From IMG/VR virus record IMGVR_UViG_3300051213_000340, positions 1 through 60,814 of that record: a DNA stretch of 60,814 bases. One strand, written 5' to 3'. Position 1 is the stretch's first letter, and each line of letters begins with the position of its first letter. The stretch comes from a virus. Its lineage: Duplodnaviria > Caudoviricetes. This document shows, piece by piece, positions 370-22,949 of the stretch. Both the position numbers and the translations under genes were made by a program. The notes beneath the pieces are model-generated. The model did no database searches and had not been told where the DNA came from. It saw only the letters and a program-made list of their open reading frames with translations.

Positions 370-504
370 AGTCAAGTTCTTTTCCCGCCCCCTAATAATA
401 AAAAGTCTTTTCTATTAGTCTTACCTAATCTGTCCGACACATTAGCCACATCAATATGTTAGAGACTTTTTAGGTCGCCCCAATTTGGGACACATTAGGT
501 CACG
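370..504. repeat. Copy 1 of ~130-bp palindromic element (second copy at 22818-22949)
   Basis: Aligns by eye with 22818-22949; core CTAATCTGTC-C-GACACATTAG plus a third half-site GACACATTAGGT at 489. Confidence 0.9.
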
Positions 505-512
505 CTACCACA

Positions 513-581
513 GCCCGAAGAACTCGTCGTCACCGCCCGAAGAACTCGTCGTTGCCAGAACCACAGCCCGAAGAACTCGTC
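513..581. repeat. Three direct repeats GCCCGAAGAACTCGTC (iteron-like)
   Basis: Exact copies at 513, 535, 566. Confidence 0.9.
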
Positions 582-590
582 CTCTACACT

Positions 591-651
591 TAAAAATAAT
601 TTGATTTTAATAAAGAAAATTATTGACAAATAGTTTGTAATATGCTACAAT
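591..651 (+). promoter_or_regulatory. Strong sigma70-type early promoter P1
   Basis: TTGACA (623-628), 17-bp spacer, TG-n-TACAAT (646-651), AT-rich UP-like region; near-duplicate at 2180-2240. Confidence 0.9.
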
Positions 652-732
652 ATTATCACGGTTGGGAGAGGACAGAGAGCCAAACCAATCGGACTGGATA
701 ACCCGCAGTAAATACTGCAACTGAAATACATC

Positions 733-1038
733 ATGAAGAAAACCATCACTAGCAATGGCGAGATCCTGCAACAGGCTTTCGCGGATCGAGTTGCAGTAAA
801 TACTGCAACCAGAAAAGACTCCACGCTTCGAGTCTGTGAGCATCTAGAGATGTTCCAACCAGAACGCTGGAAGTCACGCGCTCGTTGGGAATACAAGCAC
901 ATCCCATCGCCGACCAACAATCAGATCAATGCAAAGCTCCGAAAGGAGTCCAGCATCGAGCGCAAGATCAGTGCGCTCTTGAGTAGCGGCAAGATCGAGC
1001 AAGCCGTCAAGCTCATAGACAAACACATCCTCCGCTGA
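733..1038 (+). CDS. Hypothetical early protein (101 aa)
   Basis: First ORF after P1, preceded by palindrome and AACTGAAATACA leader; contains a palindrome copy at 792. Confidence 0.7.
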   Translation: MKKTITSNGEILQQAFADRVAVNTATRKDSTLRVCEHLEMFQPERWKSRARWEYKHIPSPTNNQINAKLRKESSIERKISALLSSGKIEQAVKLIDKHILR

Positions 1039-1070
1039 TGCAGTATTTACTGCAACCCGAATCCCGAACC

Positions 1071-1289
1071 ATGAAAATCGAAGACGAAATCGTGATGCAC
1101 AACATCACAAAACACAAGCTCGATGATATGCGAGCAAGATTCATCGGCCTCCTTGAAGGTGATTTGAAACGGCATCTGGATACAATCCAAACCTGCCTCA
1201 ACATGGAACCTCCACGGATTGCTGTGGCAATCGAGCGGGTTGAAACAATCCAAGCAATCATCAAACGACAACTCGACTGCATTAAATAA
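1071..1289 (+). CDS. Hypothetical early protein (MKIEDEIV...)
   Basis: ATG follows palindrome (1039) and CCCGAACC leader shared with the 1738 ORF. Confidence 0.7.
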   Translation: MKIEDEIVMHNITKHKLDDMRARFIGLLEGDLKRHLDTIQTCLNMEPPRIAVAIERVETIQAIIKRQLDCIK

Positions 1290-1292
1290 ACC

Positions 1293-1363
1293 ATGTGAGT
1301 CGTAGTCCCTCACATCTAAAGGACTAGCGCATGAGTCTGCCAAACTCATGCAGTAGAATGGCA
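1293..1363 (+). ncRNA. Two adjacent H-type pseudoknots in intergenic leader (candidate cis-regulatory RNA)
   Basis: PK1: ATGTGAG/CTCACAT plus TAGTCC/GGACTA; PK2: GCATGAGT/ACTCATGC plus TGCCA/TGGCA; all Watson-Crick. Confidence 0.65.
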
Positions 1364-1371
1364 ACTGAATT

Positions 1372-1692
1372 ATGAATACTACCTACCAACATGAAGTATC
1401 CGCCGCCATCGAAGAGTTGGGTGGCGACAAAGTCCTCGCAATCATTGAGACCCTTTATCAAGATGGTCTTGACCTCTATCAAGAAGCGTGTCGCTCCGAA
1501 GCTAGAGATGCGGCCCTCGTTGAACACCACTTCATCGGCCACTCCGAAGCCATCGAAAAACTGCGAAGAGCATTGCTCATCGCGACAGACCGCATGCCAG
1601 TGGTCATTGCCGAAGAGAGTCAATACTACCACGCAACCGCCGAAGAGTTCGGCGATGAACATCGCTACGCCGCCGCCGCCGCTATGCAGTAA
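1372..1692 (+). CDS. Hypothetical acidic early protein (106 aa)
   Basis: ORF with AACTGAATT-ATG leader; stop codon lies inside the palindrome at 1685. Confidence 0.75.
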   Translation: MNTTYQHEVSAAIEELGGDKVLAIIETLYQDGLDLYQEACRSEARDAALVEHHFIGHSEAIEKLRRALLIATDRMPVVIAEESQYYHATAEEFGDEHRYAAAAAMQ

Positions 1693-1737
1693 ATACTGCA
1701 ACCCGAATCATGAATCCCTAATCCCTAATCCCGAACC

Positions 1738-1899
1738 ATGAATCCTAAACCGCACAACCTAAATCGTAAACGCTCGCACTCGCTCCTTCGCTGGAGCGAT
1801 GTGCAAGTGGCACTCACATTCACAATCTTTGTCGCCGCCAGTTGGATCGTTGGCTACGGCATCACTACACTGATCCTAATGTTCCAAAACAAATACTAA
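1738..1899 (+). CDS. Small membrane protein (53 aa)
   Basis: Hand-translated MNPKPHNL...VALTFTIFVAASWIVGYGITTLILMFQNKY; one hydrophobic helix; CCCGAACC-ATG leader. Confidence 0.65.
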   Translation: MNPKPHNLNRKRSHSLLRWSDVQVALTFTIFVAASWIVGYGITTLILMFQNKY

Positions 1900-1900
1900 T

Positions 1901-2182
1901 ATGATACAAGAACCAGAACAGCTGTGCCTCTTTGAGGCTGAAGAAGAATACAACGCCGAACCAAACTACCCATCGCATCGGGCGAAGACCGCACTCGAAC
2001 TGATGCAGTGGATCGGGAAGTCTGGACGCATCCGTGGCAGGATACGACCCAAAGTCAAAGTCATTGACTGCCGCCACTGCTTTGGCGGAGTCCATGTGCT
2101 TGTCACATTGGACGGGCAACGCGAGTGGTATTCGACTGCCGCTATCGAATGGCCGTTCATCACGGACGGCGGACACATCTAA
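1901..2182 (+). CDS. Hypothetical protein (93 aa)
   Basis: Abuts previous ORF, same strand as operon. Confidence 0.65.
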   Translation: MIQEPEQLCLFEAEEEYNAEPNYPSHRAKTALELMQWIGKSGRIRGRIRPKVKVIDCRHCFGGVHVLVTLDGQREWYSTAAIEWPFITDGGHI

Positions 2183-2240
2183 AAATAATTTGTTTTAGAT
2201 GAAGAAAATCATTGACAAATAGTTTGTTATATGCTATACT
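2180..2240 (+). promoter_or_regulatory. Strong sigma70-type early promoter P2 (paralog of P1)
   Basis: TTGACA (2212-2217), 17 bp, TG-n-TATACT (2235-2240); same downstream leader GGTTGGGAGAGGACAGAGAGCC. Confidence 0.9.
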
Positions 2241-2324
2241 ATTCATACGGTTGGGAGAGGACAGAGAGCCGAACCAACCTACTGAAACAAACCTGCAGTA
2301 AATACTGCAACATCAAATAGAACC

Positions 2325-3173
2325 ATGAATAACACAACTGGAATCCTTGTCAAAGTATCCTTTGGCAAGTTCGCCCCCAAAGTAAAGAACAAGAAGGCTA
2401 CCAAAGAGTATGCCAACAACCACCAATGTGACGAGTCGATGCATGAGTCTAGAACTCACTTGATTCCAAAACAATATGTCGATCCGATACAGAAGTTCCA
2501 AGCTTCTGTTCGCAATAACTTTGTCAACAACATCACTTTGCCGTGGGAGCGCGGAGGCACTTGCCTTATTCCCGCGAAGATGATTGACAAGTTCATGTCG
2601 GGCATCGGCAATCTGCGACAAGAGTATGACATACTTGTGGCGCAGTTCCTCGAAAAGTATGAGGACATCGTGGCTGATGCAAAGGTCAGACTCAATGGCG
2701 ACTTCGATGCATCACGCTATCCGTCCAGACAAGATGTGTCTGCTTGCTTCCGCATGGATGTGACCTACTCGCCACTGCCTGATGCTGGTGACTACCGCAT
2801 TGATGTGTCCAAAGAGATCATGGAAGAAGTCCGTGCCGAAACCAATCGCGCCGCCGAAGCGAGATACGAAGCGGCGCGACAGGACTTGCGCCAACGACTC
2901 ATCGACAAAGTCGAACATCTGGCAGACAGATGTAAGGCAATAAATGAATCGGACAAAGCCAAATGGTATGAGTCAAACCTTACCAACATCACGGACTTGA
3001 TCGAACTCATACCAGACATGCTGATCGGAGATGATCCAGATCTACTCGATGCCGTAAAGGCCGCGAAGGAAATGCTCAACGGCATTGACTCCGATGCCAT
3101 CAAAGACAGCGAGTTCGTCCGTGACGACATCCGCAAGAAGGCCGCCGCCATTGTGTCGTCACTCCAATTCTAA
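2325..3173 (+). CDS. DUF3150-like protein (282 aa)
   Basis: TLPW..G..LIP and F....YP.......F segments; position directly upstream of an AAA/VWA pair. Confidence 0.55.
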   Translation: MNNTTGILVKVSFGKFAPKVKNKKATKEYANNHQCDESMHESRTHLIPKQYVDPIQKFQASVRNNFVNNITLPWERGGTCLIPAKMIDKFMSGIGNLRQEYDILVAQFLEKYEDIVADAKVRLNGDFDASRYPSRQDVSACFRMDVTYSPLPDAGDYRIDVSKEIMEEVRAETNRAAEARYEAARQDLRQRLIDKVEHLADRCKAINESDKAKWYESNLTNITDLIELIPDMLIGDDPDLLDAVKAAKEMLNGIDSDAIKDSEFVRDDIRKKAAAIVSSLQF

Positions 3174-3175
3174 CT

Positions 3176-3252
3176 ACCGACAGGGGGAGCGCATCTGATC
3201 ACGCTCACAACCATGCAGTAAATACTGCAACCACAACAAACTGAAATACACT
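3176..3252 (+). promoter_or_regulatory. Intergenic cassette A: hairpin + palindrome (3214) + AC-rich leader
   Basis: Near-identical to 5794-5873. Confidence 0.8.
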
Positions 3253-3261
3253 ACAACTATT

Positions 3262-4329
3262 ATGAACCATCCAGAAATTACCACCAACGATATCGTGTCC
3301 GTCCTTGACCGCTCTGCCAAAGCTGGCAACAAGAAGATCCCAATCTTCTTAGGAATCTATGGTTTGGGCAAGTCACACTGCGGACATGAGTTCGCGCTCA
3401 AGACTGGCAGACAATACATTGACTTCCGTCTGCCCTATCGAACCTTCAACGATGTCCGTGGATTCGGTATCCCGAATCGTGAACGCGGAGTCATGGAGTG
3501 GCTAGTCGATGAGGACTTACCGCAAGATCCCAATGGTTCCTATGCCTTCCATTGGGAAGAGCTGACCAATGCCATGCCTTCTGTCCAGAAGGTCGCCATG
3601 CAAGGCATGCTCGACCGCAAGATCGGGCAGTATGAGTTCCCCAAAGACACCATCATGTTCGCGTCTGGCAACCGACTAGCTCACAAGACTGGTGTCGAGC
3701 GCATGCTCGCCGCCCTTGCCGACCGACTTGCCATCTACCATGTCCGTCCCGATCTGGACAGCTACATGAATTACTTGCAGACTCACGGAAAGTCTGCTGA
3801 AGTAGTTGCATACTTGTCCAGCAATCCGACTGCTACTTACGACTTCGACATTACGAAGTGGGACAGCGAGTCCAACCTGCCAACCTTCCGATCATTCGAC
3901 AGGCTCGATGAGCTTGCCGCATCCTACGAAGATACACAAGAGATGTGCAATGACCCGCTCTTGCGAGCGCATGCCGCCGCTTGTGTCGGCGCAAAGCACG
4001 GCGAGCAGTTCGCGCAGTTCATCAAGCTGACCAGCAAAGTCGGCGATGTCGGCAAGATGATCGAAGAGGCGGACACTTGTCGTATACCAAATGAGATCGA
4101 CATCAAGTGGCTCATTGCTTGCCGTGCGATTGTGCTTGCCACCAAAGAAAACCTGCAACAAGTTCTTGTCTTGACTCACCGCTTGACAGATGAGTCAAAC
4201 AAAGATAGTCAATTACAGGCGATGGAATCCTTTGTTGGCAACACGATCAAGCGGCGCAAGCCAGACTTGATGCGGACAAAGGCCATGATCGACTGGCATG
4301 TTAAACACGGCGATGCACTCTCCAGCTGA
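3262..4329 (+). CDS. MoxR/CbbQ-like AAA+ ATPase (355 aa)
   Basis: Walker A GIYGLGKS, Walker B FHWEE, sensor-1 ASGNR, Arg-finger ALADRL. Confidence 0.85.
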   Translation: MNHPEITTNDIVSVLDRSAKAGNKKIPIFLGIYGLGKSHCGHEFALKTGRQYIDFRLPYRTFNDVRGFGIPNRERGVMEWLVDEDLPQDPNGSYAFHWEELTNAMPSVQKVAMQGMLDRKIGQYEFPKDTIMFASGNRLAHKTGVERMLAALADRLAIYHVRPDLDSYMNYLQTHGKSAEVVAYLSSNPTATYDFDITKWDSESNLPTFRSFDRLDELAASYEDTQEMCNDPLLRAHAAACVGAKHGEQFAQFIKLTSKVGDVGKMIEEADTCRIPNEIDIKWLIACRAIVLATKENLQQVLVLTHRLTDESNKDSQLQAMESFVGNTIKRRKPDLMRTKAMIDWHVKHGDALSS

Positions 4330-4550
4330 ACTACTAAACCAGATCTTGAACCATGAACCCCGAAACCTGCTAACACAGCAGGTTGAGGGGATCATTGAAG
4401 AAGCGATCTGGTTTAGCAGATGGTTGGAGAAAATGAATTGTTCATCCCACATGAGACGAGAAGGCTACTACTATCTAGTATCTGACGAAGTCTATGAGCT
4501 ATGGACACAGCATCACAAGACACTGAAACAATTAGCAATACAGCATAAGT

Positions 4551-5789
4551 ATGAAAGCAAAAGAAATGATAGACAAAGCGATGCTAGTCATCGCAAATCA
4601 CCACGACTTCTTCGCGCCAGCCGCGTTGGCTATGCCGTGGCAGGAGTGTCGGGATATCCCGACAGCATGCACGAATGGTGAGCGTGTGCTTTACAATCCA
4701 GAGTTTCTGGAGTCACTGCCACAGCCAGCCGTTGTTGGACTGATCATTCATGAGATCGCCCATCCGTTGTTGGGACATCTCGAACGGAGCAAGCACATGG
4801 AACACAACACAGCCAACATCGCGTTCGACTACGAGATCAACAATCTCATCGAAGTCTACAACAAAGATGCCGCTCGCAAGATCATCCTTCCAGCAGATGC
4901 GTTTGTCGATGTCGCCAAATACAAGAACGAAGCTGGCGAAGTAGTCTACAAGAAACTGATGGACGAGAAGAAGAACAATCCGCCACCGCCACCACCGCCC
5001 AAAGGCAAAGGCAAAGGCAAAGCTGACAGCGGAGGCGACAACGAAGGCGAGAGCGAGAGCGACAACGATGGCAAAGGCAAAAGCAAACCATCGTCAAGCG
5101 GTATGTTCGAGCAACCATCTGGCAACTCTGACAACAAGAGCAATGTCGAGAAGCGCTGGCGCGAGATCCTGTCCAGCACATTGCAGACTGCGAAGTTGCG
5201 TGGCACTGCCAGTGCTGAACTACTTCAGAAGTTCTCATCCATCATGGAGCCGCCGCTCAAGATGCGCGACCTTCTAGAGAAGTATGTCTGCGAGTTCGCC
5301 ATGTCTGACGACAGCACAAAGTCCGACAAGCGTTGGCTTGCCAACAACGATATGTGTGTATCTGGCATGGAGTCCGAACGCCACGGCACTATCATCTTTA
5401 TCAAAGACACATCTGGTTCTATCACTGACGACATCCTCAAGACATCCTGTTCCGTGATTCAAGATGCTGTCAACACACTCAACGCATCCCGCCTCATTGT
5501 TCTCGATGTCGATGCAGAAGTCTGCGATGTGCAGGAGTTCATGCCCAACGAAGATATTCCATTGACTTGCAAAGGTCGCGGCGGCACAGACTTCCGACCC
5601 GCTTTCGATTGGGCTAAAGACAATGCGTCCGATGCTCGCGTCCTCATCTATCTGACTGACGGATGGGGGGAGTTTCCCACAGATGTTCCAGACATCCCAA
5701 CCCTCTGGCTATCATGGGATCGTGACGAGTCCGACTATCCGTTCGGACAAGTCATTCCACTTTCGGTATTGGCTAACGCCACCGCATAA
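4551..5789 (+). CDS. Putative metallopeptidase + VWA domain protein (DUF2201-like)
   Basis: TACTNG and HEIAH zincin motif; low-complexity linker; MIDAS DTSGS, GGTDF, YLTDG. Confidence 0.88.
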   Translation: MKAKEMIDKAMLVIANHHDFFAPAALAMPWQECRDIPTACTNGERVLYNPEFLESLPQPAVVGLIIHEIAHPLLGHLERSKHMEHNTANIAFDYEINNLIEVYNKDAARKIILPADAFVDVAKYKNEAGEVVYKKLMDEKKNNPPPPPPPKGKGKGKADSGGDNEGESESDNDGKGKSKPSSSGMFEQPSGNSDNKSNVEKRWREILSSTLQTAKLRGTASAELLQKFSSIMEPPLKMRDLLEKYVCEFAMSDDSTKSDKRWLANNDMCVSGMESERHGTIIFIKDTSGSITDDILKTSCSVIQDAVNTLNASRLIVLDVDAEVCDVQEFMPNEDIPLTCKGRGGTDFRPAFDWAKDNASDARVLIYLTDGWGEFPTDVPDIPTLWLSWDRDESDYPFGQVIPLSVLANATA

Positions 5790-5793
5790 CATA

Positions 5794-5873
5794 ACTGACG
5801 GGGGAAGCGCATCCGATCACGCTTACAACTCTGCAGTAAATACTGCAACTAAACTAACAAACTGAAATACACT
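5794..5873 (+). promoter_or_regulatory. Intergenic cassette B: hairpin + palindrome (5832) + AC-rich leader
   Basis: Near-identical to 3176-3252 with a compensatory stem change. Confidence 0.8.
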
Positions 5874-6896
5874 ATGAAAATCAAAGAAGTAATCAATGCC
5901 GTTATCAACGACAACCCACACAATTGCAGCTCGTCCGTCCTCCGTTGGTATGGTAAGAGCAAAACGCTGTTGTTCCTGCACAAAGATCAATGGGAAGTAG
6001 CACTACTCAAGTTCGACAATGTAATCTTCTTCGAGAAGAACAGAGTCAATAGCGTCATGCATAGACACAAAGACCGCTACGATTACAACCATATGTGGGG
6101 CAAACTGGCACATGAGGGCAATCTAATGATCGACTTGTATGAGACGATCAAACCAGCAGTCGATACTCGCAAGACTATTCCCAACAACTATGTGTTGTTG
6201 CGTAGCTTGATCGACCATGTTGTTCCCAAAGATCAATTAGATCTGTATTGGAAATACACATGGCTCATGCCACTATGTTCTTATGCACAAGAGCTGAACA
6301 AAGATACCATCAATGTCGATCTAGCATTGGCAGACATGACATTCAATGAACACTTCAATAAGTTCAAGGACTTCATGCAGTCGTTCAACTCGATAGCTGT
6401 CGATGGCAACACAGAAGAGAAGCGTGATGCACTAGAGACTTTCTTTAGGGATAGTCAGCTACTGAACAATAACTTTAGTAAATACAAAAAGCTAGAGTAT
6501 TATCCTTACACAGCTGGTGATTACATCCACCGCAATCACATACAGGCTATCTTGCCGACTTCTAATGTAGGCAACGCACAAGAATTCTGGAATGCAGATC
6601 TAACAAATCGTAGAGCTGATTGGGCTTACAACGAAGCGTTGTTCCACTTTGACAAGCCGCATAACTTACTGACCCATTGGGACTCACTGGTCAACATCTT
6701 CAAGATGATCGATCTACCAGAACCAGAAGTGTATGGCATCAAGTTCTGCGTAGAGAACATCAAGACACTCGCCGCTCTATTCGACACAGCCAAACAAGAC
6801 TACACTCATCCGTTGGACTGGCTCAAGAATGAGAAGGAACAATCAGAGCCAGCGCAACAAGCAGTCGAGTCCTATCCTACAACCTTACTCGCCTAA
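5874..6896 (+). CDS. Hypothetical protein (340 aa)
   Basis: Long ORF after cassette B; no motif recognised. Confidence 0.8.
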   Translation: MKIKEVINAVINDNPHNCSSSVLRWYGKSKTLLFLHKDQWEVALLKFDNVIFFEKNRVNSVMHRHKDRYDYNHMWGKLAHEGNLMIDLYETIKPAVDTRKTIPNNYVLLRSLIDHVVPKDQLDLYWKYTWLMPLCSYAQELNKDTINVDLALADMTFNEHFNKFKDFMQSFNSIAVDGNTEEKRDALETFFRDSQLLNNNFSKYKKLEYYPYTAGDYIHRNHIQAILPTSNVGNAQEFWNADLTNRRADWAYNEALFHFDKPHNLLTHWDSLVNIFKMIDLPEPEVYGIKFCVENIKTLAALFDTAKQDYTHPLDWLKNEKEQSEPAQQAVESYPTTLLA

Positions 6897-6901
6897 CCAA
6901 T

Positions 6902-7579
6902 ATGAAACTACTGACAACATCTAACTACAAGACACTCAAAGGAACTAGCAAAGGCTACGATACTTATGGCTTGCACATGATTCCTGCATCCCTATCTGGT
7001 AGAAATGTATGTGCTTCCAGTTCCGCTGGATGTCGGGAAGCATGCCTCAATACTGCTGGCAGAGGTGCGATGGGTTCTGTTCAGAACGCACGACTCAAGA
7101 AGACACTGCTCTTCTTTGAAGATCGTGACAAGTTCATGGGCTATCTCGCTGACGACATCGAAGCGGCAATCAAGAAGTCAAAGCGCAAAGGCATGACTCC
7201 GTGCTTCCGCCTCAACCTCACCAGTGATTTGATGTGGGAGAAGTATGGCATCATCGAGATGTTCGCTGACCAGATCTTCTATGACTACACCAAACACTTC
7301 ACACGGATGCTACGCTTTATCAACGGAGGCTTTCCTGCTAACTACCATCTGACATTCTCTAGATCAGAATGCAATGATGCTGATGTAGCTAGAGTGCTTG
7401 CGGCTGGTGGCAATGTCGCCGCTGTGTTTGGCTCTCGTCTACCAGACACATGGATGGGAAAGCCTGTCATCAGCGGAGACGAAACAGACTTGCGATTTCT
7501 CGACCCGAAAAATGTCATCGTCGGGTTGACCACAAAGGGCAAAGCAAAGCATGACACAACGGGATTCGTTATCCATTAA
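6902..7579 (+). CDS. Gene product 88-like protein (Cys-rich, radical-SAM-like motif)
   Basis: NVC-x6-CREACL..AGRG, FRLN.TSD, FYDYTK, NYHLTFS motifs. Confidence 0.75.
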   Translation: MKLLTTSNYKTLKGTSKGYDTYGLHMIPASLSGRNVCASSSAGCREACLNTAGRGAMGSVQNARLKKTLLFFEDRDKFMGYLADDIEAAIKKSKRKGMTPCFRLNLTSDLMWEKYGIIEMFADQIFYDYTKHFTRMLRFINGGFPANYHLTFSRSECNDADVARVLAAGGNVAAVFGSRLPDTWMGKPVISGDETDLRFLDPKNVIVGLTTKGKAKHDTTGFVIH

Positions 7580-7583
7580 GGCT

Positions 7584-7679: not shown

Positions 7680-7704
7680 TGCCTGTATCCTGCACGATGG
7701 ATAC

Positions 7705-8346: not shown

Positions 8347-8365
8347 CACTAACCACAATAACAAT

Positions 8366-15800: not shown

Positions 15801-18800
15801 AGAGACGATAGCGTTATTATTTTGGAGTGTTTGGTAGAGTTCTCCTCTAAACAATGTCAGATAGAATTCTGGAACAAGTTCCATAATTGCTGTTTCATTG
15901 GCGGTTCTGGTTTGTGCTGGTGTCAAACCTTTCTTCTTGTCACCAAATCCAAAAAGTTTAAGTAGTGCGTTCGATTGCCCAATAGCTTTTTTGGCTACCG
16001 GACTACCAGTAACTTGCGGGTAAACAGCATTAATGAACCGGTTGAACGAATCAATAGCTTTATAGTAAGTAGTGGTCGGGCTTCCTTCTTTAGGAGATTG
16101 TTCCCCCAAATTCTCTAGATCCCTATGAACATCTAATGTAGAATCAAGCGGCGGCTTGATGCCATCAGTGAAAACGAATTGCTTACTTATGGTTTCTGCA
16201 ACATCAGATACTGGTTTAGTGCTTTCTTTATCATTTACAATGGAGAGTTCTGAAAGCGGGTTCCTCGGATCTGGAAACCGGACATCGTAGATAACTCCAG
16301 TTTGTTTGTCGTATTTAATCGCTTTGTTTATGTTCCCACTAAATGTGTTCGGAATATAAATCGGCATCTTACTTTTAAGAGCCGCCGCAACTGTGAATGG
16401 GTTGTTGTCAAACAATCCAGTAATTCTTCCGCCATCAACAACTGTGTGGAATTTAATCTTCTCAGACTCCACGAACTGTTGTTTGAACGGGTTCCACCAA
16501 CTTGTACGTTTCGTTTGTTTCGTTTTGAACAAGCTGATTGGGATCTGATAAAGTTCAGACACCTCATCTGTAGAGAGCGGCTTGTACAATTCAAAGACAC
16601 GCTTTGCCAGATTGTCCGACAGATCAGATTCACTGATATCGGAATCGAATCCTTTAGGCATCCCGTATCTTGATCCCCGCATAAAGCGAATTGGGGCTCC
16701 GGCTTGAGCCAGTCTTTCAACTACCTCATCTCGCGAAGCACTTACAGCTTTTTCGATGGCGTTCTTTTGTTTGGGGGTTTCGGTTTGGACCGCTTGTGGT
16801 TGTTGTTTAAAAACAATTTTATTTAAATTGTTTTCAAACACAATGGGGGCGTTACGCATTTCGTCCGTAAGGTGTCTCGCGCGTTTCGTCCCGAGTAACA
16901 GAAGTGATACCGGCATTGCAACGTCCGGCTCGATCTCAGACGCGGCATCGGTGCGGCTTCTGCCCTCATGCTGTTTGGGATTAAGCACCCACACTTTACG
17001 CTCATCATTCCACGTGACGTTTAGGTAAGGTGGTGCAATAGATTCTCCTTCTTGTATTTTGCCTTTAATATACTCTTTTGTGTCTGGATCGGAAACACCT
17101 TCAGGCACTAGTTTCCTAAATTCAGACGGAAGCATTGGTACAGTAAACCCAAAATAGTTAACATCTATTTGTCGTGGGGTGTTGCCAATACCTCTCACAT
17201 CCCATTTAATCTTTGGTGGGGTTGTGGCTTCAGTAATCGGAGCTTTAGTCTTAGCCACTGGAGCTTTAGCTGTTGTAGCTTTAGCCACTGGAGCTTTAGC
17301 CGCTTTTTTCGGTGCAGTCTTCTCAACAACAGGCTCCATGTTTCCGGAAGCGATTTGGATGTTGTTGAAGGTATCTACAAGATGCTTCATTACTTCTTCC
17401 TTGTTCACGCCCAAGGATTCAGCTTGAGTGTTAATGCGGATCTCGTCTTCCTTAGTGAAGGCAAGAGCATCTTCTGGAGCATCGGTTTCTTCGACTGTTT
17501 TTTCTGGTGTAGTAATCGAAGTCGCTTCTGCTTGGATTGCTGGCAGAGTTTTTTCTGCGGCGACAGGCGCAGCCGCTTGTATCGGCGGCTCGATCTCAAC
17601 TTCCACTTCAGATACTGGAGCTGGAAGTGGCTTAATTTGTTGTGGCCCTTCGTCTTCTACAACTACCATTTCTTCTCTGATTGCCTGTTCAACTTCTTCT
17701 TGAGTGACATTAGACAACCTATCCTGAATAAGTTTTACACGTTCTGGATCTGCCTTCGGAAGAGTTTCGGCAACTGGTCTTTCAACTTCAACTGGCTCTT
17801 CCGCAGCCACTTCTTCTTGAGTTTCAAGAAGTGGTACTTCTGGTTGAATAACTTCGGCTTCAACATCAATAGTCGGACCTTCCTCAGCGACTGGCTCTGT
17901 GGCTGCTGCTTGTTCTTCAGGAGCAACTACTTCCGGTACAAATACAACCTCTGGCTCTGCGCCCATATTTGTAAGGTTGCGTGGAGTAAGAACATTGAGA
18001 GAAGGTTCTGGTTCTCCGACACCAGCTTCGTCTTTCACAGTAGTTCCATCCTCCGGAACTACTGGTACTTGCGGCGGAGACACAGTGGCTCTAGCTTCTG
18101 CCAATTTACTAGCGGCATAAGCTGCGCGGCCAGAGCGTGGGGCTTTTAGGATCGACAGAACGGTTTGAGCGGAGATCGGACTTGTCTCAGCGAGCCTGTT
18201 GCTAATGTCTTGAGCAAACGTTATCTCTGCCAAACGACGTTGTTCAGCGTTGCTCTGGCGCATTACCAAATCCTTAGTCGCTTTAACTGCTGGAACGCCA
18301 GCACCCATACCAGCACCGATAAGGGCGGAGCGGCCAGCACTTTCAAGTCTTTGGAGAAACGGAGTGTTCTCATCTGTAGCTGCGTCCGAAACAAAGCTAT
18401 TGATAAAGTCATCAAGACCTTCTTCCATACCTTCGTCGAGAGCATTTCGTGCTGCCTCTTTAGTAAATTTAGTAGAACCAAATTTTTTCAGAGTACTGTC
18501 GAACGCTTTAGAAACTACTTGCGTAAACTCTTCGTCTTTGATGTCGTCGATTTTGGTGATCTTAGTCAGTATGTTTTTGATCTGCTTCTTAGAAGCACCG
18601 CCTAATAGAGCATCTTCAAGAGCGCCACGGCCCAAAGCTCCGAATGAAGATGTGATAGCTGCTGTAATAGCACCGCTAGTTAAACCAGCACCCAAAGCAC
18701 GATCATGCATTTGCTCTGGAGTCATGTTGGCATGGTTCTCGATCCGTTTCTTTTCTACATCGGACAAGCTATCCCACTTACCTTCTTTCTGTAATTTGTC

Positions 18801-20672
18801 GCGAAGATTTTTGGCTTCTTGGAATTGGTTATAAACAGAAGCATATGTTGCTCCAGCTGAACGGTTGAACGCTGGCAACGCCATAGCTGAAGTCGTACCT
18901 ATTTTAGAAATAAGGGAACTGTTATATGCTTTGATAGCGGCCATTGCTCCATTGGCTCCAGCTTCTTGAGTAGACTGTTTAATAAGTCCCTCAGCCAGAA
19001 GTCGTTTAGAAGCCTGTTCCAAAGTTTCGTTTGGCAATTGCCTAAACGCATTAGAAGCCATAGATTTAACTAGACCTTTTGCAGTGAGGCGGGCTCCAGA
19101 TTTAGCGGCAGCAAACGCAGCACCACCAGCTCCCGCTGCTGGAGCAGTGGCGAGAGAAAGGAGTGCAGTAGCGCCGACGTCAACAAGCATTGGCGCAATT
19201 GCTTCCATGAAATCTTGTCCAGTGCCCAATTCAGTATTGAACAAACGAGCAATTTCCCGACGGTCATTGCGCTCTTTAATGTTGCCAATCATGTAGTCGC
19301 GAGCCCAATCGGCCTTCGCCATCATTGGGAGAGCTGCAACTAGTTCTCCGAAACCATCCTGAACAGACTCAGCAATACCAGAAATACGAGTGGCCATCTC
19401 GCTAAAGTTTTCTGGATTGGAAGCGTACTCGCCCAAAATTTCGTAATCCTTTTTGCCAGCAGCACGTCCCGCTTGCAATGTGTTAAGCCACTTCTCAGAT
19501 GTCTCATCAAAGCGGGAGAGCTTTTCATTGTAGTGATCGAAGTTGGCTTGCAGGAACGGGATACGGCTATCCATGATTCGAGTGCGATCATCATCCGTAA
19601 GCTGTGGGTTCCCATCCAGAGCTGCTTTCAACTTGTTCTCGTCCGCCATAATGGACGGATTTACAAGCGGAGTTTCGTATCCGACATTACGGATATTTTT
19701 ATAAAGCTCTTCTGGATCTTCATAAATTTTAAATTTTCCTCCGCCGTTTGCACGTGCGTAAGCAGATTGAGTAAAAGCTTTTTCAATTTCTTGATCTGTA
19801 AATCCTTCATTATCTGGAAGCGTTTTGTTTACTTCCTTACGGATAGAAGCAAAATCTGGTTTTTGGACATCGGTAACTTCACGCCCTTCTCTATCCGCTT
19901 CTGCAAGTGTGTCAGCATATTTATCCAGTGTGGAGTTTGAAAGGCCACCCCAAATATTCTCGATAACGGATCGAGCTTCTGTGTAACGTTTCACTTTATA
20001 TGCTTCCTCTTTGAAGCCAGACGGGACTCTAGTTGTTGCGAGAATTCCAGCAGTATCAGCAAAAGTGATCCCACCGTCTGCACTGTTGCGAATAGAGTCG
20101 GCTAGATTCTCTTTGTCAAAAGAACTTCCAATGATATACTCTTGACGGCCTTCTGCGTTAGTAATTCTAGCAATTGGAAGTTCACCAGTTAGAACCTTCC
20201 TACGTTTGGCATCGTCATAATAACGATCAGCAACCGTCGCGGCATAAGACTCAAGCTCCATGCCCCTTTGTTTAGTGGCTTCATCCATCTCCTGCCCTTC
20301 GGGATAAGCTTCTTTGAATGCAAAATATCTAGAAGCTGCGTCCCATTCAGGAGTATCGTAATTAAACGTGGACTGGATCGCTTTGAGTTTGGTATCCAGA
20401 CTAGTATCTTCTGGAGCAAAGAGGCTTGCAAGATTGTCGCTATTGCTCCAATCGACATCTGGCTTTTCTTCTTTAAGACGTTCTATTGTTGTGTTTAGAA
20501 TGTCTTTCTCAATCTCTTCATTATAGACGTTGGCTTTAACGTACTCTTCCCTAACATAATTGCTCCAGTTCAAACGGTCTTTGACGACGTCGCCTGTAGA
20601 GTTCGTAGTTTTCCAGTTTGAAAATGATTCAAATTCTGGCTCTTGTTGAGTCAAGTCGTCTAGTTCTGTCAT
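9837..20672 (-). CDS. Giant internal virion / large polyvalent-type protein (3611 aa)
   Basis: Gly/Ala hydrophobic segments near N-terminus, E/P/A-rich linker, HEGRSR ParB-like motif, zincin HEYIH with downstream EEFVA, second degenerate zincin NEELFH, helical C-terminus. Confidence 0.8.
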   Translation of the reverse strand: MTELDDLTQQEPEFESFSNWKTTNSTGDVVKDRLNWSNYVREEYVKANVYNEEIEKDILNTTIERLKEEKPDVDWSNSDNLASLFAPEDTSLDTKLKAIQSTFNYDTPEWDAASRYFAFKEAYPEGQEMDEATKQRGMELESYAATVADRYYDDAKRRKVLTGELPIARITNAEGRQEYIIGSSFDKENLADSIRNSADGGITFADTAGILATTRVPSGFKEEAYKVKRYTEARSVIENIWGGLSNSTLDKYADTLAEADREGREVTDVQKPDFASIRKEVNKTLPDNEGFTDQEIEKAFTQSAYARANGGGKFKIYEDPEELYKNIRNVGYETPLVNPSIMADENKLKAALDGNPQLTDDDRTRIMDSRIPFLQANFDHYNEKLSRFDETSEKWLNTLQAGRAAGKKDYEILGEYASNPENFSEMATRISGIAESVQDGFGELVAALPMMAKADWARDYMIGNIKERNDRREIARLFNTELGTGQDFMEAIAPMLVDVGATALLSLATAPAAGAGGAAFAAAKSGARLTAKGLVKSMASNAFRQLPNETLEQASKRLLAEGLIKQSTQEAGANGAMAAIKAYNSSLISKIGTTSAMALPAFNRSAGATYASVYNQFQEAKNLRDKLQKEGKWDSLSDVEKKRIENHANMTPEQMHDRALGAGLTSGAITAAITSSFGALGRGALEDALLGGASKKQIKNILTKITKIDDIKDEEFTQVVSKAFDSTLKKFGSTKFTKEAARNALDEGMEEGLDDFINSFVSDAATDENTPFLQRLESAGRSALIGAGMGAGVPAVKATKDLVMRQSNAEQRRLAEITFAQDISNRLAETSPISAQTVLSILKAPRSGRAAYAASKLAEARATVSPPQVPVVPEDGTTVKDEAGVGEPEPSLNVLTPRNLTNMGAEPEVVFVPEVVAPEEQAAATEPVAEEGPTIDVEAEVIQPEVPLLETQEEVAAEEPVEVERPVAETLPKADPERVKLIQDRLSNVTQEEVEQAIREEMVVVEDEGPQQIKPLPAPVSEVEVEIEPPIQAAAPVAAEKTLPAIQAEATSITTPEKTVEETDAPEDALAFTKEDEIRINTQAESLGVNKEEVMKHLVDTFNNIQIASGNMEPVVEKTAPKKAAKAPVAKATTAKAPVAKTKAPITEATTPPKIKWDVRGIGNTPRQIDVNYFGFTVPMLPSEFRKLVPEGVSDPDTKEYIKGKIQEGESIAPPYLNVTWNDERKVWVLNPKQHEGRSRTDAASEIEPDVAMPVSLLLLGTKRARHLTDEMRNAPIVFENNLNKIVFKQQPQAVQTETPKQKNAIEKAVSASRDEVVERLAQAGAPIRFMRGSRYGMPKGFDSDISESDLSDNLAKRVFELYKPLSTDEVSELYQIPISLFKTKQTKRTSWWNPFKQQFVESEKIKFHTVVDGGRITGLFDNNPFTVAAALKSKMPIYIPNTFSGNINKAIKYDKQTGVIYDVRFPDPRNPLSELSIVNDKESTKPVSDVAETISKQFVFTDGIKPPLDSTLDVHRDLENLGEQSPKEGSPTTTYYKAIDSFNRFINAVYPQVTGSPVAKKAIGQSNALLKLFGFGDKKKGLTPAQTRTANETAIMELVPEFYLTLFRGELYQTLQNNNAIVSDATKEKNKYSIDPASVAKARSILLERIKVPEDFKLPEYIKDKSTQEAQAYFLLTSGFKTGQTLPKIDGVTMRGEDINADSSNVIIDQFIFNSINDDTSRPDKNGLFPNVGAVVKRVSERVMGRLKYEKETASKNDFYDAAIQFEGDVSDVSRLELDAALEEIYGSSNPYDIHSSLDSLKAEKVFRNVRKEVEQLLRTDADIAKSIRRLAKRTVYANEPELADNKFPVDVFRDIAQWASPSTNKQTAAESFTFRRQLLDHFPVANVTSALVHDAFEASGAFAYDFTRVADANTVSILVRNGLTEKEAKFVLEKRNLKRIMEETGVTEQEAASILESQRKVQFRYSAPSFIRSKYREFYRRLNQKEINRLGLESGNSQSVYDALRQISTKGLSKENRAVAKLLLRFQSTILNTRFLITDIKNNKAGDFSRGVDGTNMVYLNKSGFYGVGVESVLLHEYIHAITVDVLNRPNASLTPAQRSAKTRLNGLMQLAMKQYNSELQKTGVGSLEFEAATVNIEEFVATFFSSPSFQSKLKLLQQEEIKSRSFFARIYDAILDFFGIKPKTDIDKAFAALVDLSTLGNIDDQYSIESQVDRSLVETRNNGASRRIVPVKSSDAEVRMTSFEPIDSNIDSTPEQEAGINQLIDQAISSLVPDNVEVTVFETQEEADRNGIFKDRPEAAVVAALMQDSEGRSVSAIFVNRSKMREALLSRSSNIENPLMAKAMMESIFNEELFHVAEFYAFTTEEITELANTMSDVEFDDIIDDYTSVPARRDQLKLALRRDDNAEIKNQLIGEMLRMRAQKITRGFTTEEDIAFYESNPSLMRIAFRYMRGFFRRMYARYNINKNNPELAAAIHRMSTELRFLQEGTYNPDTHSAFDPNNPDANFEIIRQRFTATAAEITADTTDEEIERRFKGLFDSLELPVSLFSAGEYKHMSTRLEKLFKGDIDPRIQTLFKSQKFFEQATDKLGKSMMVKINKLITETYGKGGIDPSVLSDATGTTEFIKIDKKLKQSFQEDYRNAKAARTEAVARGEIDKKWISTDALAAMRKAMIKDRIDAETDKARQEIRARQARAIERISKDSPQLAAALVEMRKVTDLMSKKVKEKYNLSESMQVKFDANMGIYLTRAYKAFNEEGYIERVLESNDPKFVEIRQEASVYFRDRYIKQLANKKLRVSKNNAKITGTAPITKEKAIELATDEVNNDPAIISQFMAQFLRSYSPDYIGRVGTLPKGVTKSLIDNLRRKSDLDPSVRKLLGEYDQETEGLNNLLRTYSVVSTMVARQSFYNNLIDMAKLRPVIGPDGNPVLDENGEPVQDGFLLTEDDLRERIKKNPMMQQEYVNIRTGKLYTPDTEEKVPQGLAGQYDPTYNYYGPKEMVDGMRRMYTPPVIDENLTGAQQAVNTVVTTFNSLTGLSLGVKTLGSIPFYFRNIIGNMAFFAPSQGVSFNTYGKMLKNLKYVGEKFMRPDEINEYQAELISLGVLNNELNANLVKDMLSNKFNMERINEEIHTISGKIKMAAAKGEEFIKPLTSRLSELSQAVDGFYKMAYFENEVSTLTKAKEADIREGRTDSFYAKLSDYEIKYEAARKVKATAQSYSEAPPIVRESVRTVGMFIAPFLRFKTEVPRIIYNTYTEALAEIRSGNPVMVSRGWKRFTGMTSILGVLSAAVPTAIQMAMGIGEDEDEVLRSTVPEYSRDNTFFYYPWDGKLRSMDFTFLNPFASVIDPFLRAGENIFRGNPVDAMVSFTNAFMSQYLDMQIFSGAVLDTVYNKDSSTGQPIYYDSDKLNIFGKSLEYILLKVYTPPTLEKAYRAITSARGVAVDPQYEPLAIALDAIKPIKSYPVELKDRAERFLKDKMSERSDFDSRKNIAKSKRGIPDSQIREAAREFVESRVRIEGEIYKGLRGLSGVKGFGMTEKELVSLMRSSDIKMGPRRIMLLQNKMIEKPVLSPKFIEDMLQLEEGGEGIRRLNIMQDEINRLFPSRFAPLNL

Positions 20673-20703
20673 AGCAGTACTCTTTCTATTATGTTAGTGT
20701 AGG

Positions 20704-21669
20704 TTATTTAGATTTCTCAGAGATTTTTGAGGCTGGTTTTGTTCCCGTACGAGCAGTGTATTCGTCGTAAAGTTTTCCGTAAACGTCTGTTACAAGAGTT
20801 GAGTCGTTCGGAATATCTCCTTCATCAAGATCAGCCGCTAATGGGTTCCGCGCTTTGTACATCTTAAAAAGGATTCTCCTATCGATTTCTTTCAAGAAGG
20901 GTTTTGTAACGTCGGTTGTACCAGTTGTACCAGTACCCCATTCTTTGTCTCCGGCTGTAAGTTCATCTTTTGCCGGAGAAAGTTTTTGGATGTAATCAAG
21001 TTGGTCTTTAAGAACAGCAGTCTTGCCCTTTTCTTTTTCCTCTTGGCTTTCAAGACGTTTTTCAAAAAGTTTTTGTTGTTGTGCTGATTCTAGCTCTTGT
21101 TGCTGCTTCTGTTTAACCGTATCAGCAAGAACGCCCAATGTTTGAGCCGCTTCTGTTCCGGTTCCAGCAATAGTTTGTGCAGCGGACTTATCTCCAAGTT
21201 CTGCTGCTCTGTAAGCCGCTTGTTTGCGTAGAGCCTCATTAACGTCTTTCGTACCCAAAGCTTTGATCGTATTATCAAAAAAGTTATTGACGAGCGGGCT
21301 ACCGAACTTAGCGTATCCAAGCCGCATTTTCTCAGCTTCAAGAATCTTAGTTGGCGTATCCATATTCGGATTGTCAATAAGCGCCGTAAGCATCGGCTCT
21401 ATTTTAGGTAGAGCTTCTTCAAGATCCAATTGGTCTTGGATTTGTTTGCGTGTTTTTTGTAAATTTAATTGGGCTTCCTCAAATGCAATTTGTTGTCTCT
21501 GTGCCGCTTGTTGGATCTCGGCAATTCTCACGGCTGAGGCTTCACGGGCCACGTCCACCCCTTCTCTCAAAAATTTTTGCTGTGCAAAATAAGCTGGTGA
21601 GATAGCCCCACCAAAATTGTTTCCACGGAGAGGAGCGATGTCGGACTCGTATGAAAAGGGATCAGCCAT
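20704..21669 (-). CDS. Probable internal virion (ejection) protein (321 aa)
   Basis: Q/A/K-rich helical protein directly upstream of the giant gene, as in podovirus ejection operons. Confidence 0.6.
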   Translation of the reverse strand: MADPFSYESDIAPLRGNNFGGAISPAYFAQQKFLREGVDVAREASAVRIAEIQQAAQRQQIAFEEAQLNLQKTRKQIQDQLDLEEALPKIEPMLTALIDNPNMDTPTKILEAEKMRLGYAKFGSPLVNNFFDNTIKALGTKDVNEALRKQAAYRAAELGDKSAAQTIAGTGTEAAQTLGVLADTVKQKQQQELESAQQQKLFEKRLESQEEKEKGKTAVLKDQLDYIQKLSPAKDELTAGDKEWGTGTTGTTDVTKPFLKEIDRRILFKMYKARNPLAADLDEGDIPNDSTLVTDVYGKLYDEYTARTGTKPASKISEKSK

Positions 21670-21680
21670 AGTAAGATTTA

Positions 21681-22430
21681 TTACTTAATAAAGTAGGGCA
21701 TTTGTTTTGTCTCCCCATCTTCAGGCGGTTTGTTCATTTTTAAAAAGGCGTCGATTCTAGCACGTTGTTCTTCCCTATCCAAAGCAATTTGTTCATTTTG
21801 CAAGAGGAGTTCCTGTTCAGCTCGATATAAATTGGCGGCGGCAATGTTCTGCATTTCTTTAGGCAGAGAAGATCTACGTCCACCAATTTGAGTTCCAGAA
21901 GGTCGAGTCTCAAGACCGCCGACAGCTCCCTGAACCCCACGAATTGGTTGTCCTGTATTTTTATCGTAACGAGTTAGTGCTGATGAGGAGCCAATTGGCT
22001 TATTTTGCATTTGGGACAAATTGTCAAGATTTGGGGTAAACAAACGATTCTCCGCAGCAGTAGCCGCTACTGGTGTTTGTTTATTAGCTTCCTGCGACAT
22101 CTTAGCCAGTGCGGGAGCAGATCCTTCCGGAGCTTCAGCCTCAAATTCACTGCGGTATTTCTTATAGAGACCACTCAACTGGCCGCGAGAAACACCGATA
22201 TCGGCCCCAATTTTGACCATTTGTTCAGGATCAACCTTAACTTCATCGCGAGCAAATTGTTTAAGTATAGAACCTAACTCTTGTCGTTTCTCCAAACGGC
22301 TCGCTTCTGGAGCTGCTGGAGCGGTTGGAGCGGTTGGTGGGTTAGCTTTAGCAGCGGCCAAACGGGCCTTCTCTTCTTCAAAACGTTTCCGAACATCCGG
22401 CGGTAATGATGTTAGTGCAGGTCCAGCCAT
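21681..22430 (-). CDS. Probable internal virion protein (~249 aa)
   Basis: Low-complexity, A/P/Q-rich; start placed at ATG 22430 because a -10 box overlaps the upstream ATG. Confidence 0.6.
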   Translation of the reverse strand: MAGPALTSLPPDVRKRFEEEKARLAAAKANPPTAPTAPAAPEASRLEKRQELGSILKQFARDEVKVDPEQMVKIGADIGVSRGQLSGLYKKYRSEFEAEAPEGSAPALAKMSQEANKQTPVAATAAENRLFTPNLDNLSQMQNKPIGSSSALTRYDKNTGQPIRGVQGAVGGLETRPSGTQIGGRRSSLPKEMQNIAAANLYRAEQELLLQNEQIALDREEQRARIDAFLKMNKPPEDGETKQMPYFIK

Positions 22431-22437
22431 ATCGAGC

Positions 22438-22466
22438 ATTTTAAAGGTCGATGCTTACGATGTCAA
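22438..22466 (-). promoter_or_regulatory. Leaderless-type sigma70 promoter
   Basis: TTGACA-17-TAAAAT-7 nt-ATG. Confidence 0.75.
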
Positions 22467-22473
22467 CACATTA

Positions 22474-22767
22474 TCACCACAAGTATTTACAAGCCCAATG
22501 GCGGGCAGTCGTCTTATCGTTCGCCGTCTGGCAATTGTGTCTAGAGCGGAAGTTAGCCCGCCGCTTCGGATCTTTGTGCTGCGTAAAATCCTCGTAGCCT
22601 CTCGCGCCAAAAGAAACCTTTTTGATTTTGTCACCTTCCTTACCCAAAACCACAAACTTCTTTGGAGAACCTGCTGGTGCTTTCTTCGGTTTGTTAAAAC
22701 CAGCATACTTCTCTCCCATATATTGGATCTGACCGGAAGGTAGTCTCTTAAATCGTTTGTTAGCCAC
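22474..22767 (-). CDS. Small basic protein, DUF5754-like
   Basis: KVSFGARGYEDFTQHKDPKRRANFRSRH...ARHWACKYLW pattern. Confidence 0.7.
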   Translation of the reverse strand: MANKRFKRLPSGQIQYMGEKYAGFNKPKKAPAGSPKKFVVLGKEGDKIKKVSFGARGYEDFTQHKDPKRRANFRSRHNCQTANDKTTARHWACKYLW

Positions 22768-22773
22768 AGACAG

Positions 22774-22801
22774 ATCTTATCAAAAATTTGGTGAAAGTCA
22801 A
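22774..22801 (-). promoter_or_regulatory. Leaderless-type promoter
   Basis: TTGACT-16-TAAGAT (with TGn extension)-6 nt-GTG. Confidence 0.6.
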
Positions 22802-22817
22802 TACAGTCTCAAGACTA

Positions 22818-22949
22818 GTCAATAATTTTCCCACCCCCCTTATATAAAAGTGTTTTCTATTTGGCTTACCTAATGTGTCCGACACATTAGGTACATCAAT
22901 ATGTTAAAGACTTTTTGAGTGGGGGTATTTTCCGACACATTAGGTCACG
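22818..22949. repeat. Copy 2 of ~130-bp palindromic element
   Basis: Perfect 13-bp inverted repeat TACCTAATGTGTC-C-GACACATTAGGTA (22867-22893), third half-site at 22934. Confidence 0.9.

Follow-up and report, generated by a model that had tools for sequence, protein, structure and literature searches.

A repeated long palindrome beside promoter modules in an uncultured tailed phage, possibly a transcription-boundary cassette with lineage-specific arms

We analysed IMGVR_UViG_3300051213_000340, an entire IMG/VR virus record of 60,814 b from the Caudoviricetes that is classed as linear and has a CheckV estimate of 100%, with attention to a palindromic unit of about 130 bp that occurs in it as two diverged direct copies; the whole stretch is referred to below as the window. 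The early genes lie at 733-9681 (+), downstream of a near-consensus sigma70 promoter, and are followed by a minus-strand operon from 22767 to 9837 that encodes a DUF5754 protein, two family-less proteins and a family-less protein of 3611 aa. Next come the large terminase gene terL (23034-24821, -), a 595-aa open reading frame (ORF) of TerL family phrog_2 (E 8.8e-16) whose 3' end adjoins the second copy of the unit, the replication genes (24873-39016, +), and the virion and lysis genes, which run from 60803 to 39854 (-). Profile searches of the ORFs showed that the window encodes a primase-helicase, two small DnaA-domain-IV-like proteins, and RuvC-like and endonuclease VII-like resolvases. The cultured-phage collection held neither a DNA nor a TerL match to the window. 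TerL relatives numbered 338 in IMG/VR and 813 at E <=1e-20 in a large protein set, the latter with no informative name among them, and the metagenome runs holding this phage are of freshwater, aquatic and wastewater origin.

Copy 1 of the unit (370-504, +) is situated between left-end repeats and the early promoter, about 120 nt upstream of that promoter, and copy 2 (22818-22949, +) in the gap that separates the terL stop from the promoter serving the next operon on the minus strand. Both are intergenic and 85 nt separate the terL stop from the start of copy 2, which agrees with the initial annotation of this DNA, where the copies had been placed in non-coding gaps with the second just past terL. 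Their relationship as direct copies was confirmed by alignment (mean column identity 81%); a BLAST search of 370-504 on the record returned 22817-22949 (81%, E 1.2e-29), and a repeat search paired 381-504 with 22826-22949 at 79% identity. Each copy contains a long palindrome. That of copy 2 (22846-22916) has inner arms that are perfect over 13 nt, TACCTAATGTGTC at 22867-22879 and GACACATTAGGTA at 22881-22893 around C 22880, set within outer arms AAAAGTGTTTT (22846-22856) and AAAGACTTTTT (22906-22916) that pair with each other; no other perfect palindrome with 11-nt arms and a gap of <=5 exists in the window, and a C-run at 22830-22839 is able to pair with a G-run at 22917-22925. The palindrome of copy 1 (400-471) is imperfect, its outer arms AAAAAGTCTTT (400-410) and AGAGACTTTTT (461-471) enclosing inner arms at 424-434 and 436-446 that carry two C-C mismatches around C 435. 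The head-to-head half-sites around a single C, the perfect 13-bp repeat of copy 2 and the outer arms had all been proposed before and were found as described on direct reading. Compared with shuffled sequences, copy 2 folded with z of -4.1 (+ RNA), -4.0 (- RNA) and -5.0 (DNA), and copy 1 more weakly with z of -1.7, -3.0 and -1.75, respectively. No Rfam family matched the element at gathering score.

A solitary third half-site accompanies each palindrome. The sequence GACACATTAGG stands at 489-499 and again at 22934-22944, in both cases exactly 53 bp after the same-sense inner arm (436 to 489; 22881 to 22934), a spacing that the initial annotation had also given, and it runs into GTCACG to form auxiliary sites at 489-504 (+) and 22934-22949 (+) that are identical between the copies while 10 of the 17 nt preceding the half-site differ. 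Within the 60,814 b the 11-mer half-site occurs six times at <=1 mismatch, each time inside one of the two copies; at <=2 mismatches there are 20 occurrences, no excess over chance (12.7 +/- 3.2). An auxiliary site at 53 bp was also found in the related genome G001, with two mismatches of 12 in copy c1 and three in c3, and in copy cJ of G002, where it has one mismatch of 12, an unrelated half-site sequence and a place on the opposite side of the palindrome. By our own arithmetic about 1e-3 matches as close as that of G002 are expected by chance within +/-140 nt. The exact 53-bp site recurs in three lineages and with two unrelated half-site sequences, and two additional copy variants in metagenome run X1 carry it at equal offset. 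With regard to conservation in relatives, on which the initial annotation had laid weight, relatives keep the architecture but not the sequence of the half-site, and only a subset of them keep the 53-bp spacing.

Both copies are coupled to promoter sequence. An UP/-35 module beside copy 2 (22818-22830, -; GTCAATAATTTTC) reads leftward at 57 nt from the palindrome centre; reverse-complemented, it matches positions 615-627 exactly, where the 11-of-12 early promoter has its UP/-35 part. That promoter is a strong one of sigma70 type (615-651, +) consisting of GAAAATTATTGACA, 17 nt and TACAAT with TG before the -10, its core of TTGACA, 17 nt and TACAAT occupying 623-651. The homologous UP/-35-like module of copy 1 (371-383, -) is GTCAAGTTCTTTT on the plus strand, with a TTGAC that likewise reads leftward. 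A proximal sigma70-type promoter (22774-22801, -; TTGACT, 16 nt, TAAGAT, with TG) follows, and 7 nt beyond it the DUF5754 gene (22474-22767) starts with GTG. Among the 13 copies of G000-G004, 11 have a TTGAC 58-65 nt from the palindrome centre, and the first TTGAC downstream of the centre falls at 56-65 nt in 20 of 32 terL loci, four of the 32 being loci in which the spacing script centred on the wrong repeat. Three of the modules (G002 c2, G002 cJ and G004 cJ2) have a -10-like hexamer at 17 nt and a start codon 7-8 nt beyond it; G004 cE has TTGACA, 17 nt and TATTCT with an ORF start 81 nt from the TTGAC, and G003 c2 likewise shows a credible -10 and then a start codon. With a good -10 and an immediate start codon in several relatives, the module would be a working promoter of the next gene there. 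The early promoter region is itself duplicated in the window (586-688 against 2175-2277, 86% over 103 nt), with the second promoter at 2204-2240, its core at 2212-2240, and no palindrome beside it. As a separate observation, late-direction promoters end 7-8 nt before the start codon (window 22767-22801 and 22431-22466; G002 58273-58310; G004 44200-44236), so their mRNAs would be leaderless or nearly so.

Between two and four copies were found per genome: two in the window as a lower bound, three in G001, two each in G002 and G003, and four in G004. Throughout G000-G004 one copy lies 37-154 nt after the terL stop and before the next late-direction gene, and in G001-G004 another lies between two conserved late-direction genes, X (86-173 aa, no family) and Y (143-168 aa, with weak HNH-endonuclease PHROG matches in four of four, E 2e-6 to 3e-3). 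In G004 two early genes of like direction flank an additional copy, and a tandem pair with a 135-bp period is also present. Nine of the 13 copies in G000-G004 are within about 200 nt downstream of a co-directional gene. An equivalent of copy 1 upstream of the early promoter is present in the window, in G001 and in the L084 contig, and was not found in G002-G004. Contigs that branch off inside copy 1 in runs X1 and X2 carry further copy variants, and run X5 has a tandem copy; this comparison covered four runs in all and used assembled contigs, not reads. The ancestral positions are the gap between terL and the next operon and the X|Y gap at the head of the late block, copy 1 being an extra copy of one clade, and the bracketing of the early genes and ejected-protein operon to which attention had first been drawn looks incidental. 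Sequence comparison places a mosaic break close by, after the DUF5754 gene and not at the element: the two genes beyond it (20704-22439, -) are 29-36% identical or missing in phages L005-L073, whose TerL is 89-95% identical, and a few relatives show short patches of higher identity past DUF5754 (e.g. L008, 63% over 22% of a 252-aa protein).

Genes X and Y were found in nine of nine compared relatives, both in the late direction, and the window has neither; the contig therefore stops short at 60814 and the CheckV estimate of 100% is an overestimate. It ends 11 nt past the start of a 398-aa gene (60803-60814), at which point relatives continue for 1.5-3.5 kb with X, Y and an instance of the element; past position 60814 this phage probably has a third copy. 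The statement that the element is present twice is accordingly true of the window and otherwise a lower bound, given this missing end and the further variants in other runs.

In relatives, the sequence after the terL stop follows a frame of GTCAAT.ATTTTC, a C-rich run, TATAAAA(G/C)T.TTT.TA, the inner palindrome and A(G/C)TTTTT, and the unit is ordered as A4-5, outer stem, inner palindrome, outer stem again and T5. Conservation is strongest in the A4-5 and T5 flanks, which enclose a stem in every aligned copy. The palindromes are 70-76 nt long with inner arms of 11-15 nt, and the outer stems covary (GTC/GAC, CTT/AAG, CTCCCC/GGGGAG). In a set of 45 unique elements, of which a few are false positives and some are one copy taken in both orientations, 10.6 of 12 inner-arm positions pair with the arm's own partner against 3.7 with the arm of another element, and at least three Watson-Crick pair types occur at each of the 12 positions. 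RNAalifold run on a plain MAFFT alignment recovered seven pairs, six of them with compensatory changes, and the L015 element is perfectly palindromic across the 71 nt folded, from AAAA to TTTT. At least seven inner-arm types were distinguished among lineages, and two of these, A and B, are interleaved within one 13-row TerL clade. All copies of a genome have the same arm type in six of six multi-copy genomes (the window, G001-G004 and the L008/L084 contig). The L062 element resembles a recombinant inside the element, with a type-A left half and a type-B-like right flank. A candidate fourth half-site, GTCAACACATTAT over the -35 of the promoter at 22466-22438, was rejected together with its G001 counterpart as ordinary promoter homology, because type-B relatives have an equal promoter sequence (GTCAACACGATATCACC) that does not covary with arm type.

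The terL-side copy was scored in 69 loci with >=200 nt after terL and was present in 33 of them, 20 by a strict test and 13 more by reading or other scripts. On a quick TerL tree of the 69 rows its presence requires one change (SH-aLRT, the Shimodaira-Hasegawa-like approximate likelihood ratio test, 92), a number as low as which was reached in none of 500 label shuffles, and the 36 loci that lack the element fall together on one side of a branch and nest next to an element-bearing clade, an arrangement most simply read as a single loss. Scored by the strict frame pattern, presence had appeared to be all-or-none (0/5 genomes without the terL-side copy); this was softened, as two of these genomes, G008 and G009, keep in the X|Y gap an AT-rich weak palindrome in the same A/T frame (folding z -2.7 and -2.4, respectively). 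The X|Y gaps of G006 and G007 fold no better than shuffles. The AT-rich framed sequence of this clade implies that the frame predates the long GC-containing palindrome. Taken together, these results show a genuine feature that is inherited and has a defined structure.

Folding of 16 unique copies favoured the terL-sense strand in eight and the antisense strand in seven with one tie (14 against 19 G-U pairs), and this lack of strand bias fits a DNA-level or two-way role. Copy 1 is flanked by promoter pieces that point outward, and no transcript is expected over it. The kept 53-bp half-site, the absent strand bias and the setting of copy 1 point to recognition of the half-sites as duplex DNA with helical phasing, and the covarying outer stems and the A/T-run frame point to a hairpin, so that the unit is read as doing both jobs. 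An RNA antiterminator in which the auxiliary site competes for one arm was considered and rejected, the auxiliary site being 5' of the hairpin in the window and 3' of it in G002 with the spacing exact in both. The unit had initially been interpreted as a protein-loading platform. In general terms this idea, of a platform at the DNA level that a sequence-specific protein reads, appears supported, because the third half-site is kept, the 53-bp spacing recurs, arm types match within a genome and no strand is preferred; the specific options named for it fared less well, as set out below.

On the basis of the observed anatomy, positions, inheritance, covariation and coupling to the promoter module, we tentatively read the unit as a transcription-boundary cassette with an embedded docking site for a putative lineage-specific DNA-binding factor, an interpretation that we regard as plausible if somewhat short of probable. 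Taken in the late-gene direction, such a cassette would comprise the end of the upstream gene, the palindrome of A-tract, stem and T-tract, the C-run, the UP/-35 module and the next gene. The palindrome would stop or insulate transcription coming from the upstream unit by acting as a hairpin with U-runs both ways, a phage-encoded lineage-specific factor would dock on the inner arms together with the auxiliary half-site at a distance of five helical turns, and this putative factor, once docked, would time the adjacent promoter in an early-to-late switch.

A number of observations weigh against this interpretation. A terminator scan did not flag the element, whose basal stem is AT-rich (GTC/GAC plus A-T pairs) and whose T-runs are 4-5 long, and copy 1 has no upstream co-directional gene in the window, G001 or L084, where a terminator role lacks an obvious substrate. 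Neither -35 module of the window has a recognisable -10, copy 2 depending on a second promoter 22 nt further on, and in eight of the 32 terL loci the TTGAC stands 74-98 nt from the centre. No auxiliary site accompanies G001 c2, G002 c2, either G003 copy, any of the four G004 copies or L008/L084, and most copies outside the three lineages that have it lack one. A simple story is further complicated by the framed weak palindrome that the clade without a terL-side copy keeps in its X|Y gap. Recombination inside the element, as in L062, and gene conversion could keep the copies of a genome alike with no factor involved. No window gene is present in all of G001-G004 and yet in none of five genomes without a terL-side copy, and arm type was tracked by none of the proteins compared between types A and B, namely a 199-aa helix-turn-helix (HTH) protein, p79 and the DnaA-IV-like p103. 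The first early gene product, gp1 (733-1038), is hypervariable and has a core that is closer between two type-A genomes, with three lineages compared; scans of viral and metagenome contigs to extend this association gave only the two known loci and two short L084-type contigs, and the early ATPase used as search bait gave one locus.

Among the candidate arm readers, the 199-aa HTH protein (24873-25472, with weak TerS-like Pfam matches), p79 and p103 were rejected, their DNA-reading segments being alike in types A and B, and p107 (9358-9681) was set aside with homologues found in L084 and G001 only. Two small stand-alone ORFs at 25713-26024 (+) and 9358-9681 (+) match the DnaA C-terminal domain PF08299, the former with E 1.2e-17 and the latter with E 5.7e-5, below cut-off. 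The former keeps the motif RDHSTVIHA, which we take to resemble the DnaA signature, and the latter is hypervariable between close relatives.

An alternative that dispenses with a dedicated factor is that the copies are plain two-way intrinsic terminators or insulators, kept alike by duplication, recombination and gene conversion. The frame of A-run, covarying stem and T-run, with a U-run after the hairpin on both strands, is shared with Rho-independent two-way terminators, as is the location at the 3' ends of terL and gene X; the preponderance of copies just downstream of co-directional genes in G000-G004 (9/13), the exchange inside the L062 element and the framed AT-rich weak palindrome still present at X|Y in G008 and G009 would all be accommodated. 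However, a hairpin has no use for a solitary half-site, yet this one is kept beside 17 scrambled nucleotides and recurs at 53 bp in G002. The stem, of at least 30 pairs, is also irregular with an AT-rich base and no G+C-rich segment beside the U-run, its apical sequence is common to the copies of a genome, it went unflagged by the terminator scan, and there is neither an RNA-strand bias nor, at copy 1, an upstream gene to terminate. These genomes do have canonical GC-rich terminators at other places, namely two following a 221-aa ORF in G001 and one in G007. We consider plain terminators an unlikely explanation.

The initial annotation had suggested twin replication origins, and a multi-copy origin with inverted initiator sites in an AT-rich palindrome and an auxiliary site, in the style of palindromic viral origins, was weighed as a further explanation. 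Such an arrangement is known from oriS and oriL of herpes simplex virus 1 (HSV-1), palindromic origins with inverted initiator boxes and an auxiliary box of which there are several per genome, and the ori and crr sites of phage P4 are bound by its primase-helicase; P1 parS is another site that the element may resemble. The likeness to the HSV-1 and P4 origins consists in inverted sites within an AT-rich palindrome, a third site nearby, two or more copies and promoter-rich gaps. In addition to the phased third site, the AT-rich spacers and A/T tracts, and the primase-helicase and DnaA-domain-IV-like proteins encoded, this account can draw on iteron-like direct repeats beside copy 1 and its homologues (three repeats of about 25 nt at 507-584, +, with spacings of 22 and 31 nt, lying between copy 1 and the early promoter; analogous but different repeats occur in L084 and G001), and on a cumulative GC skew that in the window and G001 is minimal near the gap between terL and the HTH gene and maximal at the contig ends. 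The skew minimum at 24,893 is nevertheless about 2 kb off copy 2, and the skew of G002, G003 and G004 differs in shape or sign; with turning points inconsistent across five genomes, GC skew was rejected as an origin marker and twin origins were not borne out. Iterons accompany copy 1 only, at its ancestral positions the unit stands between late genes that run the same way and is linked to a promoter module and to gene 3' ends, p103 does not follow arm type, and a large sister clade without the terL-side copy and the long GC-containing palindrome retains the same replication genes. An origin function is in our view doubtful.

A more far-reaching proposal takes the inner arms as a fast-switching 'address' for a phage protein that would bind the duplex half-site. 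Linear DNA would then present two inverted sites and one five turns away, and an extruded hairpin one site per arm; the two to four copies would act as one coordinated set, either of origins or of a new early-to-late switch, with a specificity swapped between co-infecting relatives, lost once at terL in the sister clade and decayed to an AT-rich remnant at X|Y. We hold this, too, with considerable doubt. That none of the five readings considered is correct strikes us as improbable.

Still less probable is a selfish or neutral miniature repeat, similar to a miniature inverted-repeat transposable element, that spreads within these genomes. Copy number varies from two to four, G004 (135-bp period) and the run X5 strain have tandem pairs, and G004 copy cE points in the early direction, all as such a repeat might behave. 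Set against this, two positions are constant across lineages down to 73% TerL identity with one change on the tree, no transposase was found, and frame and arm complementarity have been maintained during sequence turnover. Sites for packaging, genome-end formation, staged DNA entry or inter-copy recombination, also among the initial suggestions, we regard as the least credible: the two ancestral copies do flank packaging-type nuclease genes, just after terL and just before the HNH-like Y, and long palindromes can extrude cruciforms in a phage that encodes RuvC-like and endonuclease VII-like resolvases, but the terminal direct repeats of relatives lie away from the element (373 nt at 100% in G002, about 1 kb from the junction copy, and 549 nt at 99.6% in G006, a genome without the long palindrome), cuts at sites 22 kb apart would yield sub-genomic pieces, no joint between copies was seen among the contigs of the four runs, and no tyrosine or serine recombinase was present among the ORFs scanned. 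The origin, plain-terminator and packaging explanations are each weaker than the boundary cassette.

The closest described kind of element is the promoter-early stem-loop (PeSL), a composite terminator/promoter cassette of T4-type phages. In the published account, PeSLs are multi-copy and intergenic, with a stem-loop just upstream of a sigma70-like promoter that has an AT-rich upstream region; copies are alike within a genome and unlike between phage lineages, degraded -35-only copies are described, and the elements are linked to gain and loss of neighbouring genes (Comeau, Arbiol and Krisch 2014, PMC4122927). Their stem-loops are short (e.g. A3-4 G3 - loop - C3 T3-4) and occur in tens of copies in hyperplastic regions (PMC4122927). 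The unit described here is alike in having several intergenic copies and in its lineage-specific sequence, and would be alike in layout where the module beside the palindrome is a working promoter; the two -35-only modules of the window match the degraded forms, and the DUF5754 gene beside copy 2 is present or absent among relatives. It differs in its two to four copies at a small set of fixed core positions, in a palindrome of 70-76 nt with lineage-specific switching inner arms of 11-15 nt, and in the phased solitary half-site; no circle excision of the PeSL type was seen among our contigs. PeSLs of T4-type phages are said to have been treated also by Arbiol et al. in 2010. A second parallel is the early/late switch of phage phi29: dimers of the small phage protein p4 recognise inverted repeats set between divergently oriented promoters of early and late genes, repressing one promoter and activating another. 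The features in common are a podovirus-type genome and inverted repeats with A/T tracts between or upstream of promoters of different timing. The present phage differs in that no homologue of p4 turned up, its site sequences bear no relation to those of phi29, its palindrome has a much greater length and its unit is duplicated at loci far apart. Literature on phage palindromic repeats, two-way terminators and late promoters otherwise yielded nothing relevant.

Phages of this group abound in fresh and marine waters, and the cassette offers a handle on their gene regulation, with two or three fixed control points that head virion-gene operons and a site specificity that changes between near relatives. 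If a factor does bind, the system would amount to a small, naturally occurring collection of orthogonal operator/regulator pairs, and would also mark the exchange of modules among phages that infect together. If the unit is only a terminator-promoter joint, the PeSL idea would extend from T4-type myoviruses to an unrelated podovirus-like group.

The left end of the window carries other repeats. A 16-nt palindrome, TGCAGTA-AA/TT-TACTGCA, has 12 sites at 159-5847 against 0.05 expected, five of them at 159-335 and others at 704-719, 792-807, 1685-1700, 2294-2309, 3214-3229 and 5832-5847. It is confined to the left end and early region, mostly 25-45 nt before start codons, and on either side of copy 1 its AAA-centred form is on the strand that would be transcribed. 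With compensatory variants in relatives (TGCATTAAATAATGCA in L084, TGTCATAAATATGACA in G001), it looks like a second, separate site family, possibly of nut-like RNA hairpins or operators. Short tandem-repeat arrays occupy positions 1-123 of the window (units of 8 and 14 nt, GTCACGCT and GTCACGCCTACGCT) and are matched by CTGTCACG over >500 nt in G001 (L095 2600-3121) and by 15-nt units at 1-200 of L084. Three independent contigs end inside such arrays, whose GTCACG also closes both copies of the element. Direct terminal repeats were found in G002 (1-373 and 59472-59844, 100%) and G006 (first and last 549 nt, 99.6%), both of which IMG/VR classes as linear without end repeats, and suggest short terminal redundancy in the phage group or circular assembly.

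Three further features of the window were noted. The 3611-aa ORF (9837-20672, -) has no PHROG match, no Pfam match above cut-off and no PDB-sequence match, on which grounds an N4-like virion RNA polymerase was rejected, and relatives align over 26-64% of it. The family A DNA polymerase ORF (34212-36845, +) matches polymerase profiles at residues 3-405 and 695-877 and the endonuclease profile phrog_93 over 424-739, a stretch that might represent an intein or an endonuclease insertion; alignments to relatives cover just 46% of the ORF. A tRNA gene at 29911-29981 (+) is the sole Rfam match in the window.

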